Positions 1,767-4,060 of a stretch of 4,211 nucleotides of DNA are shown here, piece by piece. The notes beneath the pieces were generated by a model that searched no databases, had not been told where the DNA came from, and saw only the letters and a program-made list of their open reading frames with translations. Within the stretch, counting starts at the first letter, position 1; each line of letters opens with the position of its first letter. Origin of the DNA: a virus (Duplodnaviria > Heunggongvirae > Uroviricota > Caudoviricetes); IMG/VR virus record IMGVR_UViG_2684622618_000024; one strand, written 5' to 3'. Made by a program: the position numbers and the translations under genes.

Positions 1767-2282
1767 GTGATCGCTGAATTAACGGCAGCAATGACGGCTA
1801 TTCGTGAAACCGCCCAGATTGCAAAACTAATGAACGAGGCAAAAACTCAAGCTGAAGTAAATGCGGCTATTGGTGAACTGAACTCAAAGCTTGCATCTAT
1901 TCAGCGCGAATGCGTGTCTCTCGTTGAGCTGGTGGGCACTTATCAAGAAATAAATGCTTCTCTCAAAGCTAAAATTGCAGAATTTGAAAACTTTGAGGCT
2001 CAGACGGAAGGTTATATCCTTAGCCAACTTGAGTCGGGAACTTTTGTGTACTCGAAGGAGGTAACCGTGAACGGCGGCAGCATAATCATGCATCTTTGTC
2101 CAAAATGTTTTGGACAAAAGATAGTATCGATACTTCAGCCATTCCCGGTTAGAGAATATGAATTTTTTCATAAAAGCAGGTGCCTGTACTGTGAAAATCA
2201 GTTTCTTATGAATAAAAATCCGGATTACGTATCACCTCCATCTATTGAAGAGTTGGCCAGAAAACTGAACGGCAATCTGTAG
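1767..2282 (+). CDS. Uncharacterised protein: N-terminal coiled-coil-like region plus C-terminal paired-CxxC (zinc-ribbon-like) motif
   Basis: Longest ORF in this interval; TAG stop at 2280-2282. Likely start is GTG 1767 (AAGAG 8 nt upstream) or ATG 1791 (MTAIRETAQ...); the TTG-initiated extension back to 1614 is probably untranslated. N-terminal ~90 aa is helical and heptad-like (AKLMNEAKTQAEVNAAIGELNSKLASIQ...KAKIAEFENFEAQ). C-terminus has CPKC-x24-CLYC. No TM segment evident. By eye the 3' half is clearly more AT-rich than neighbouring genes. Opposite strand to int/xis and the PL-like operon. I do not recognise the family. Confidence 0.7.
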   Translation: MIAELTAAMTAIRETAQIAKLMNEAKTQAEVNAAIGELNSKLASIQRECVSLVELVGTYQEINASLKAKIAEFENFEAQTEGYILSQLESGTFVYSKEVTVNGGSIIMHLCPKCFGQKIVSILQPFPVREYEFFHKSRCLYCENQFLMNKNPDYVSPPSIEELARKLNGNL

Positions 2283-2296
2283 ATTTTTACTGTTAT

Positions 2297-2309
2297 GGAT
2301 ATCCAGATT
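2297..2309. repeat. Right arm of 13-bp perfect inverted repeat (GGATATCCAGATT)
   Basis: Exact reverse complement of 1730-1742; starts 15 bp after the stop codon of the 1767-2282 gene. Confidence 0.6.
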
Positions 2310-2396
2310 GTTAAAGAGCATGCCGGATGCTTGCTTGTGTCCGGCGCGTGTGCACCACTCTCCCCCCGTGGAGGATTCCTTAATTACCAGATTTCA

Positions 2397-2627
2397 TTAG
2401 TCAGAGTTTCTTGCTAACCAGCGACGCGCGCCAGATTCGGTTTTAAACGTTTTGCTTTTGGTATACGTCATCGCGGTGAACGTGCCGTCCTGGTTGGGAA
2501 ACACGCCGCACACCAGAGATTCGTTGTTGCCAAGATCAAGAGTATCCATGCTGACCTCATATCCCCTTAACGCCGGGGTAGCGGAACAAAAACCTGCTGC
2601 ATAGTTAAAGTTGAACCCTGCCGTCAT
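2397..2627 (-). CDS. Hypothetical 76-aa protein, first ORF downstream of the PL-like promoter
   Basis: ATG at 2627-2625 with GAGG/AAGAA purine-rich stretch upstream; TAA stop at 2399-2397. Sequence MTAGFNFNYAAGF...ESGARRWLARNSD is not arginine-rich at the N-terminus, so not an N-type antiterminator. Resembles the small uncharacterised genes left of racR in Rac-type prophages, but I cannot name the family confidently. Confidence 0.62.
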   Translation of the reverse strand: MTAGFNFNYAAGFCSATPALRGYEVSMDTLDLGNNESLVCGVFPNQDGTFTAMTYTKSKTFKTESGARRWLARNSD

Positions 2628-2679
2628 GTTCTTACGCCTCGGGCTGGCTACTTAATCCCTGACCACTGCCGGGTAACTC

Positions 2680-2769
2680 TAGGTATTGCCCTGTATTGTG
2701 TGGGACGGGATGGGTTGGTATGGGAAAACTATAGGAAATGCCTAATTGCTTGTCAATAGGCTACGCCTA
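2680..2769. promoter_or_regulatory. OL-like operator array: TAGGC-N3-GCCTA palindromes
   Basis: 2757-2769 TAGGCTACGCCTA (perfect arms); 2732-2744 TAGGAAATGCCTA (one arm mismatch); 2680-2692 TAGGTATTGCCCT (degenerate). Centre-to-centre spacing 25 and 52 bp, in phase. Same motif as the array right of racR. Confidence 0.5.
2728..2756 (-). promoter_or_regulatory. PL-like sigma70 promoter directing leftward transcription
   Basis: On the minus strand: -35 TTGACA (plus 2756-2751), 17-bp spacer, -10 TATAGT (plus 2733-2728). Operator-like palindromes overlap the spacer/-10 and abut the -35. Predicted leader of about 95 nt to the ATG at 2627. Confidence 0.55.
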
Positions 2770-2828
2770 ATGATTTGGGTGCGACCTAATAGGTGATGGT
2801 TTGTGGGAGAGGTAGTAGGAGTTAACTA

Positions 2829-2850
2829 ACGGGAACTAGGAATTTCCCGT
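2829..2850. other. Hairpin-capable inverted repeat ACGGGAA / TTCCCGT just 3' of racR
   Basis: 2829-2835 ACGGGAA and 2844-2850 TTCCCGT, 8-nt loop. Lies 15-36 nt downstream of the racR stop on the minus strand. No clear U-tract, so a terminator role is uncertain. Confidence 0.3.
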
Positions 2851-2864
2851 CGGACCATATAAGT

Positions 2865-3341
2865 TTAAGTTCCTGTCTTGGTGATGTTCTGGCTTTTCCG
2901 TTTTGATTCTTGATTTTTCAGATAGTTAGCTACCTTCATTTCCATTGCGGCAATGTAGGCACGAACGTCATGATCAACCCAACTAGGCTCCGTAGCATTT
3001 CCAGATAAGAGGAAAGCCACAATTGCTCTTTTTTCATCAGAGGCGGCTTGATAAAGGCTGTTTATGTCTAAAAGTTCACTTTTTGTATCTGAAGTGGATG
3101 GGGTTGGTATGGGGTATTCGTTAAGCCCCCAATGCTCTGGACCAACCACATCAGAAAAGAAACGCCATAGTTCTGGAAGTTTGTCTTTACTTATCGAACC
3201 TTTCTTAATCCAGTCATGGATTGATGGTGGTTGGACTTTGAAATGACGTGCGATTTCCGCCTTTGATTTGACGGCTCCTGATGCAATTTTTTTGTTAATG
3301 GCCTGCTCTATCGCTCGGCCTAAGTCTTTACCACTAAGCAT
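2865..3341 (-). CDS. racR: RacR-like prophage repressor (HTH, cI functional analogue)
   Basis: 158-aa ORF, ATG at 3341-3339 with AGGAGA about 10 nt upstream. HTH segment AEIARHFKVQPPSIHDWIKKG. Length, sequence as I recall it, and position divergent from ydaS/ydaT match RacR of E. coli Rac-type prophages. Too short to carry a LexA/cI-type S24 autocleavage domain. Confidence 0.85.
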   Translation of the reverse strand: MLSGKDLGRAIEQAINKKIASGAVKSKAEIARHFKVQPPSIHDWIKKGSISKDKLPELWRFFSDVVGPEHWGLNEYPIPTPSTSDTKSELLDINSLYQAASDEKRAIVAFLLSGNATEPSWVDHDVRAYIAAMEMKVANYLKNQESKRKSQNITKTGT

Positions 3342-3370
3342 TGCTTAATAGTCTCCTATGCGCATCGCAT

Positions 3371-3434
3371 TAGGCAATGCCTACTCTCGAAGTGTTAGGC
3401 ATAGCCTATTGACAATTGCATTAGGCTAAGCCTA
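3371..3434. promoter_or_regulatory. OR-like operator array: three TAGGC-N3-GCCTA palindromes between racR and ydaS
   Basis: 3371-3383 TAGGCAATGCCTA, 3396-3408 TAGGCATAGCCTA, 3422-3434 TAGGCTAAGCCTA; all have perfect 5-bp arms. Centres 25 and 26 bp apart, comparable to the three-site lambda OR layout. The third site overlaps the spacer and -10 of the PR-like promoter. Confidence 0.62.
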
Positions 3435-3438
3435 ATAT
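3409..3438 (+). promoter_or_regulatory. PR-like sigma70 promoter for ydaS/ydaT
   Basis: -35 TTGACA (3409-3414), 18-bp spacer, -10 TAATAT (3433-3438); GGAG at 3454-3457; ATG at 3466. Confidence 0.6.
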
Positions 3439-3465
3439 TATTGTGTGTTTTTTGGAGTTCATTCG

Positions 3466-3789
3466 ATGAAAAAAGATAACTATTCATTCAAACGAGCTTG
3501 TGCTGTTGTCGGTGGGCAATCAGCAATGGCTAGGCTTTTAGGTGTATCTCCTCCAAGCGTAAATCAATGGATCAAAGGTGTACGTCAGTTGCCTGCTGAG
3601 AGATGTCCTGCGATTGAACGAGCAACAAAAGGTGGTGTCCTGTGTGAAGAACTTCGTCCTGATGTTGATTGGACATACTTACGACGCTCGTCATGTTATT
3701 CGCAGAATATGTCGATGAAGCAACCAAATGACGAAAACGATCATACCCGAAGCATCAAGAGGCAAATGATTCATGAAAATCAAACATGA
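3466..3789 (+). CDS. ydaS: Cro/YdaS-family HTH regulator
   Basis: ATG at 3466 with GGAG 8 nt upstream (the ORF-track 3445 start is a GTG further up); TGA stop at 3787-3789. MKKDNYSFKRACAVVGGQSAMARLLGVSPPSVNQWIKG is a Cro-like HTH that closely matches E. coli Rac YdaS as I recall it. Its recognition segment PPSVNQWIKG is near-identical to RacR's PPSIHDWIKKG. Confidence 0.85.
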   Translation: MKKDNYSFKRACAVVGGQSAMARLLGVSPPSVNQWIKGVRQLPAERCPAIERATKGGVLCEELRPDVDWTYLRRSSCYSQNMSMKQPNDENDHTRSIKRQMIHENQT

Positions 3790-4060
3790 GCACATCCGCA
3801 TGGCGATGAATGCCTGGGCATATCCTGATGGTGAGAAAGTTCCTGCAGCTGAAATAGCCCGGACTTATTTCGAACTGGGGATGACGTTCCCGGAACTGTA
3901 CGACGACAGCCATCCGGAAGCCCTGGCTCGTAATACNNNNNNNNNNNNNNNNNNNNNNNNNNNNNNNNNNNNNNNNNNNNNNNNNNNNNNNNNNNTTGAC
4001 CAACAATATTCATGCCGGATTTCTTCCGGATGTTCGAGGGTAAAGTTCGGTATCAGATGA
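3773..4060 (+). CDS. ydaT: YdaT-like protein (CII functional analogue in Rac-type prophages); 3' part and length uncertain because of the N-run
   Basis: ATG at 3773 overlaps the ydaS stop by 17 nt. N-terminus MKIKHEHI... matches the YdaT N-terminus as I recall it. Sequence is reliable only to 3936. After the gap the frame is unknown: one frame stops at 4058-4060, another at 4041-4043. Recalled YdaT is about 140 aa, so the gap probably under-represents the real length. Confidence 0.6.
   Translation: MKIKHEHIRMAMNAWAYPDGEKVPAAEIARTYFELGMTFPELYDDSHPEALARNXXXXXXXXXXXXXXXXXXXXXDQQYSCRISSGCSRVKFGIR
3937..3995. other. Run of 59 N (assembly gap or masked sequence) inside the ydaT-like gene
   Basis: Read directly. 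Confidence 0.99.

Follow-up and report, generated by a model that had tools for sequence, protein, structure and literature searches.

The immunity region of a Rac-like prophage in Escherichia coli O157:H7 carries TAGGC-N3-GCCTA palindromes on both sides of the repressor gene racR, and these are very probably RacR operators, set in a lambda-like pair of PL/OL and PR/OR under the control of RacR. In the proposed mechanism, one promoter module would be used in two copies, each with an operator abutting the -35 element TTGACA and a second operator that fills the spacer and touches the -10 element. The left copy, downstream of racR, would be the PL/OL equivalent and would drive a ydaF-like gene (in intact Rac, kil, recET, xis and int), and the right copy would serve as PR/OR for ydaS-ydaT and the replication genes. 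RacR at both modules would occlude RNA polymerase and keep the prophage silent, while two further operators, over the racR -35 region and its leaderless start, would give negative autoregulation. The Cro homologue YdaS, with a homologous helix-turn-helix (HTH), would probably act at the same sites, and a RacR octamer may loop OL to OR. Experimental support comes from K-12 only, in the form of a right-side RacR footprint, the PydaS and racR promoters (PMC9638921) and the RacR octamer (PMC11014345).

The right half of this arrangement, the motif and the analogy with lambda are already known; the correspondence of RacR, YdaS and YdaT to CI, Cro and CII was argued earlier (PMC5917428). The left promoter-operator module, recognised by sequence comparison, is apparently a modest new annotation of an expected kind and reveals no new kind of regulation. 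A literature search returned no Rac PL/OL, no promoter or operators downstream of racR and no RacR loop, and an earlier mention in older work on Rac kil is possible.

A Rac-type immunity region in E. coli O157:H7

The stretch of DNA analysed as a whole, here called the window, is 4,211 nucleotides long. The 1.5 kb around the palindromes matches E. coli O157:H7 strain PA20 at 100% identity, and the region serves a Rac-like prophage of this serotype as its immunity (repressor/operator) region. According to the annotation of an identical O157:H7 record, the prophage runs from integrase, excisionase, a truncated exonuclease and a hypothetical gene to a DUF1391 (ydaF-like) gene, racR, a ydaS-like HTH gene, ydaT and the replication genes. 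The alignment with K-12 Rac spans 2562-3796 at 86.7% identity, and the window prophage differs from K-12 Rac in its place next to potC and in its truncated left arm. The early-left operon is mostly lost from this O157:H7 prophage, so PL may control little in it. Masked runs of N occur at 1498-1580 and 3937-3995, within the truncated exonuclease region and ydaT.

The repressor gene racR (2865..3341, minus strand) encodes 158 aa that are 92% identical to K-12 RacR, and the protein carries the RacR annotation in an identical RefSeq record. It had no match in Pfam-A or PHROGs, nor to a solved structure by sequence, even though this essential repressor has been studied. As judged with Pfam, its C-terminal domain is not an S24 peptidase, and RecA-mediated cleavage is therefore not expected. 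Several features mark the region as Rac-type. Besides the RacR orthologue as repressor, these are (T/A)TAGGC-n3-GCCTA(T/A) operators over PydaS and the racR promoters, and a divergent ydaS (PF15943) ahead of ydaT, whose start carries a YdaT-box. The ydaS-like gene (3466..3789, plus strand; 107 aa) encodes a Cro homologue, with matches to Pfam PF15943 (E 3.8e-30), P22_Cro and the Cro structure PDB 3bd1 (E 2.8e-10). The YdaT-box, ATGATTCATGAAAATCAA, overlies the ydaT start codon at 3766-3783 and matches the K-12 box exactly, to which YdaT binds, activating a reverse promoter within ydaS (PMC11879457). The -10 element (TACGCT) of the reverse promoter PracR4 is present at 3561..3556.

To the left of racR, the first leftward gene is the DUF1391 (ydaF-like) gene (2397..2549, minus strand; Pfam PF07151, E 1.9e-30). 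It is annotated with 50 aa, and the in-frame ORF from 2627 has 76 aa (2397-2627, minus strand). The DUF1391 PHROG profile has 70 positions, and the annotated 50 aa align to 20-69; the annotated start is tentative. Further along, an ORF at 1767-2282 (plus strand), convergent to PL transcription, encodes 171 aa with a coiled coil and C-terminal CxxC pairs and belongs to phrog_1244 (function unknown). Its product had no PADLOC match, and the corresponding position in K-12 is occupied by sieB.

Operators and promoters on both sides of racR

Searching the 4211 bp with TAGGCNNNGCCTA and at most two mismatches gave six matches against 0.99 expected, a count that none of 200 shuffles reached (0/200). 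Five of them are the TAGGC-N3-GCCTA sites listed in a preliminary description, which stand far above chance: 2732-2744 has one mismatch, and 2757-2769, 3371-3383, 3396-3408 and 3422-3434 have none. The sixth match, TAAGCATTGCTTA at 3335-3347 (two mismatches), was absent from that description. The degenerate site that it gave as a sixth, 2680-2692, has three mismatches, is no better than chance and lacks conservation; 11 matches have exactly three mismatches, and 17 have three or fewer against 10.3 expected. It was rejected as a third left operator, being 52 bp from its neighbour and more degraded in K-12 (GAAGTATTGCCCG). The spacing of 25-26 bp, measured centre to centre, likewise holds for the left pair (25) and the right array (25 and 26) and fails for this site. 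From the right array to the site over the racR ATG, the distance is 36 bp centre to centre.

That the immunity region is lambdoid in style, with repressor operators flanking racR, is borne out. The proposed OL-like and OR-like arrays stand in so far as both sides carry operators, but the left array has two sites, not three; the right side has four in E. coli, including the one over the racR ATG. Two more candidates on the left were rejected as unsupported outside E. coli. One is TGGGTGCGACCTA at 2776-2788, with three mismatches and 19 bp from its neighbour. The other is CCTAATAGG at 2785-2793, which consists of two everted half-sites and is kept between O157 and K-12 within a diverged stretch; no equivalent was found in other taxa, whose upstream flank carries only 0.63 bits.

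The conserved operator unit is about 17 bp, ATTAGGC-N3-GCCTAAT. At the left, a PL-like leftward early promoter (2728..2756, minus strand) matches consensus at 11/12 positions, with its -35 element TTGACA at 2756..2751, a 17-nt spacer and its -10 element TATAGT at 2733..2728. The operator TAGGCTACGCCTA (2757..2769), with a perfect core, abuts the upstream edge of the -35 element. The operator nearest the PL start, TAGGAAATGCCTA (2732..2744; 17-bp form 2730-2746), has one half-site base off consensus, occupies the promoter spacer and overlaps the -10 element by 2 bp.

At the right, PR (PydaS; 3409..3438, plus strand) reads TTGACA-18-TAATAT and matches at 10/12, and its hexamers are identical to those mapped and mutated in K-12 PydaS (PMC9638921, PMC11879457). 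Here, TAGGCATAGCCTA (3396..3408) abuts the upstream edge of the -35 element, just as 2757-2769 does at PL. TAGGCTAAGCCTA (3422..3434) lies between the -35 and -10 elements within a perfect 17-bp palindrome (3420-3436). Both promoters thus share one layout, in which an operator abuts the upstream edge of TTGACA and a second fills the spacer and reaches the -10 (left, 2757-2769 / 2756..2751 / 2732-2744 / 2733..2728; right, 3396-3408 / 3409-3414 / 3422-3434 / 3433-3438). This shared layout accounts for an inverted repeat that was noted as 13 bp and is in fact longer, with 2750-2770 and 3395-3415 being 95% complementary over 21 nt. In a promoter scan of 2300-3600, the two promoters named at the outset were the only promoter-like sites. 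The sole 'terminator-like' match in the promoter/terminator scan was the operator palindrome itself.

Two further operators lie on the racR side of the right module. TAGGCAATGCCTA (3371..3383) lies across the racR promoter's -35 region, and its equivalent in K-12 is within the RacR-protected region (PMC9638921). The weak operator TAAGCATTGCTTA (3335..3347) covers the racR start codon and leaderless start and corresponds to the published operator O3 (PMC9638921); it is identical in K-12 and nearer consensus in other genera (TAGGCAATGCTTA). The earlier statement that racR has no obvious promoter of its own did not survive comparison with K-12, where PydaS (TTGACA/TAATAT) and three racR promoters, PracR1-3, have been mapped (PMC9638921). 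The strongest of these is leaderless. Its -10 element, GAGAAT in K-12 PracR3 (mapping and mutagenesis, PMC9638921), aligns with GAGACT at 3355..3350 (minus strand) and is conserved here in that form, whereas PracR2 is not conserved in the window.

Much of this right-hand side has been characterised in K-12. RacR binding to the 123 bp between racR and ydaS proceeds in three steps (PMC5700373), and DNase I footprinting gave the consensus (T/A)TAGGC-n3-GCCTA(T/A) and placed operators on PydaS and the racR ATG (PMC9638921). At the lowest RacR concentration, the PydaS promoter region was protected first (PMC9638921). K-12 Rac and the window share the operator consensus, the PydaS hexamers, the palindrome at the racR ATG, the leaderless racR promoter -10, the YdaT-box and both left-side sites, in addition to RacR proteins that are 92% identical. 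They differ in that the K-12 intergenic sites carry one mismatch, whereas all three intergenic cores of the window are perfect. Published descriptions of K-12 Rac cover only the racR-ydaS intergenic operators (three, later four).

Transcription from PL probably starts near 2721, which would give a leader of about 170 nt before the DUF1391 gene (2550-2721). This interval is well conserved with K-12, and no structured leader was found in it (z = +1.05). The first ~30 nt of the predicted transcript (2690-2721, minus strand) are C-rich and nearly G-free, and the start of the leader resembles a Rho-loading tract, a likeness of possible relevance to the known silencing of Rac kil by Rho (PMC4150792). 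A 13-nt direct repeat without mismatches, GGGTTGGTATGGG, occurs at 2712-2724 and 3101-3113, and the RNA of both copies, on the same strand, reads CCCAUACCAACCC. One copy is at the predicted PL transcript start and the other is in racR, where it encodes a PIPTP linker. By estimate, chance is unlikely to produce such a repeat within 900 bp; K-12 retains the leader copy only in part. Between racR and PL, a hairpin of 8 bp at 2830-2851, just 3' of the racR stop codon, was considered as an intrinsic terminator and rejected, as it has no U tract (z = -1.8). K-12 retains its stem in altered form, and the hairpin does not qualify as a canonical terminator.

Conservation of the left module across RacR-family loci

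RacR-family loci were gathered from species genomes, viral contigs and phage records (n=213). The conservation of TAGGC-N3-GCCTA in relatives, proposed earlier as a check, was confirmed by a motif scan, with exactly one site/TTGAnn/site module per strand in 200 of the 213 loci. Two sites at PL and two at PR are the invariant count across the loci. The 13 exceptions include L040, with a left module whose CTGACA -35 falls outside the pattern, several loci with too little downstream DNA, and L010 and L014, which are exceptions without explanation. Representative loci labelled Escherichia, Mixta and Proteus, Klebsiella phage KpF5 and a Pseudomonadota MAG each carry a single pair of sites beyond racR, as do viral contigs retrieved by searching with RacR homologues from Yersinia, Klebsiella and Salmonella.

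The left pair lies 93 bp to 2.6 kb past the racR stop codon, and its own spacing is a constant 25 bp in 29 distinct sequences from several genera. Across these 29 sequences, the half-sites carry 1.95 bits and the -35 element 1.96, compared with 0.92 in N3 and 0.4-0.6 in the flanks. Except for CTGACA in L040, the genera do not differ in the PL -35, and they have either TAATAT or TATAGT as -10. Among 25 distinct E. coli sequences, nearly all flanking positions vary while the module is fixed, its variation being limited to N3, the stretch from the -35 to the second operator and one half-site base. Similarly, K-12 Rac has both left sites and keeps all half-sites, with changed N3 spacers and flanks. 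This conservation of half-sites and -35 amid free N3 and flanks argues for a functional operator-promoter unit rather than a recent duplication, and by cross-genus conservation the left pair is strongly supported as functional.

The counterpart of 2732-2744 is found at the same place in RacR-family loci, usually as TAGGCATTACCTA, which is off consensus at the same position. Indeed, most lineages share one off-consensus base in the second left operator (ACCTA or TCCTA), which speaks for selection rather than recent copying and looks like tuned affinity. On the right, loci outside E. coli have three sites, not four.

The DNA-binding domains of the two regulators can be set against this pattern. 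Across the compared taxa, the N-terminal domain of RacR is 64-96% identical to that of the window, with PSI-DWI-KGSI invariant, and its mean column identity is 83% vs 52% for YdaS. The conservation of this domain matches the invariant half-sites better than that of YdaS does. The two recognition segments had been called almost identical, which overstates their likeness: 12/29 residues are shared (BLASTP E 5e-6; 41% local identity), the recognition stretch reading PPSIHDWIK in RacR and PPSVNQWIK in YdaS. The two domains are homologous nonetheless (hhalign probability 95%, E 3e-8, 35 columns), which makes shared operators plausible, and YdaS probably uses the same sites as RacR. A YdaS-family gene is divergent from racR in 17 of 20 representative loci.

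The RacR DNA-binding domain is also found fused to a Peptidase_S24 (LexA/CI-like) C-terminal domain, in proteins of 225-366 aa, and alone, in 77 aa (L134, L011, L013, L014, L135; P0101, P0102, P0114). Both TAGGC-N3-GCCTA modules are kept in L134, which has the S24 C-terminal domain, and in L135, which has the N-terminal domain alone. L011 and L013 show right-hand sites only, the available downstream DNA being too short, and L014 has no site at one mismatch or fewer. One immunity specificity thus comes with various C-terminal domains and presumably with more than one route of induction.

RacR, YdaS and the question of a loop

The suggestion that RacR and/or YdaS bind these palindromes agrees with published data for the right-hand sites, which are bound by the 92%-identical RacR of K-12 (EMSA, PMC5700373; DNase I footprint, PMC9638921). 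For the left pair, we infer that RacR binds it and represses PL. In K-12, when racR transcription is blocked by C protein or dCas9, ydaF, ydaG, kilR, racC, xisR and intR rise 40-100 fold (PMC6765115, PMC11014345, bioRxiv 10.64898/2026.09.06.749655). These leftward genes rise while the racR promoters are blocked, which suggests a RacR-repressed promoter downstream of racR and not read-through. The RacR regulon itself has been described as 'not yet characterized in detail' (PMC11014345).

The sites could instead be mainly YdaS operators, the left pair especially, through which this Cro homologue would shut off early transcription in lytic growth, with RacR acting chiefly on the right. A divergent YdaS-family gene is indeed the rule in the representative loci, its HTH is homologous to that of RacR, and YdaS represses PydaS 16-fold in K-12 (PMC11879457). 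RacR, however, footprints the same palindromes (PMC9638921), its depletion derepresses the leftward genes, and its N-terminal domain is far more conserved than YdaS, all of which make a mainly YdaS-directed role unlikely. It is also reported that YdaS does not repress racR in K-12 (PMC9638921), so the RacR/YdaS switch is no simple copy of CI/Cro and operator sharing between the two proteins may be partial. Much less probable still, to the point of being hard to credit, is that the left module is a non-functional by-product of PL/PR promoter duplication or recombination. The 95% complementarity of the modules over 21 nt in the window would fit such an origin, but several genera retain the module although its flanks have diverged and N3 is free, and the off-consensus base of its second operator is the same in most lineages.

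Lambda CI binds OL and OR on either side of cI, with looping between them. A RacR octamer may likewise bridge the PL and PR modules, with two dimers on each side, and loop out racR and any cargo; on the present sequence comparison this is a tentative proposal, somewhat below an even chance. The left module offers a second reading of the octamer, which was detected by size exclusion and interpreted by its authors as four dimers on four intergenic repeats (PMC11014345). According to that published interpretation, four contiguous repeats need no loop, and the left pair would be an independent local operator at which RacR represses PL, with no long-range OL-OR contact. This second possibility comes close to an even chance. 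The distance from racR to the left pair varies between 93 bp and 2.6 kb without evident conservation of phasing, and the 77-aa homologue of L135, which has only the N-terminal domain, still has both modules; these two points weaken the case for looping. On the other hand, relatives outside E. coli have three right sites, so the equation of an octamer with four intergenic repeats does not generalise, and the invariant 2 + 2 count favours a lambda-like bridge without showing one.

The resemblance to lambda (summarised in PMC8630535) extends beyond a repressor gene between operator clusters that overlap PL and PR. Both systems have 17-bp operators spaced 23-26 bp apart, a leaderless repressor mRNA, a divergent Cro, a CII-like gene after it and an octameric repressor. 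However, lambda has three operators per side, whereas Rac has two on the left and, on the right, three, or four in E. coli. RacR also lacks the self-cleaving S24 C-terminal domain, although homologues with the same N-terminal domain have Peptidase_S24, and YdaS differs from Cro in its reported failure to repress the repressor gene.

Another comparable system is PaaR2/YdaS/YdaT of CP-933P (E. coli O157:H7), a lambdoid cryptic prophage in which YdaS is Cro, YdaT is CII and the repressor is octameric (PMC8630535). It has an intergenic PR and PRM and, beyond the repressor operon, a PL with OL operators that was tested experimentally (PMC8630535). By contrast, PaaR2 and its GTTTAGTAA-type operator repeats are unrelated to the RacR system, a toxin-antitoxin pair lies between repressor and PL, and three OL operators were reported. 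Bistability, which had also been proposed for the region studied here, has been demonstrated for CP-933P only (PMC8630535).

The interval between racR and the left operators differs among relatives. Several phages carry 0.8-2.6 kb of co-oriented genes there (L016 3649-4800, L098, L127, L146 3794-5017, L169 3517-4470, L134 1912-2533). Those of Klebsiella phages include a nuclease-like protein of 384 aa with an HSDR_N domain, and the others include ORFs that carry no annotation. These genes are candidates for lysogen-expressed cargo; a role as defence genes was considered and set aside, as they had no PADLOC match. The slot between repressor gene and OL is the position of rexAB in lambda.

The left module provides a direct explanation for the switching on of the leftward Rac operon (kilR, recET, xis, int) upon loss of RacR, and 2728-2769, or its K-12 equivalent, gives a defined fragment for work on Rac. 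The interval from racR to the left operators would be a slot in which lysogen-expressed cargo accumulates in related phages. If the octamer does bridge the two modules, 2 + 2 sites, plus the autoregulatory site, would be the conserved core of a repressor family with a non-S24 oligomerisation domain. The long-range cooperativity of lambda would then have been reinvented independently, and the model of four contiguous repeats would be revised.
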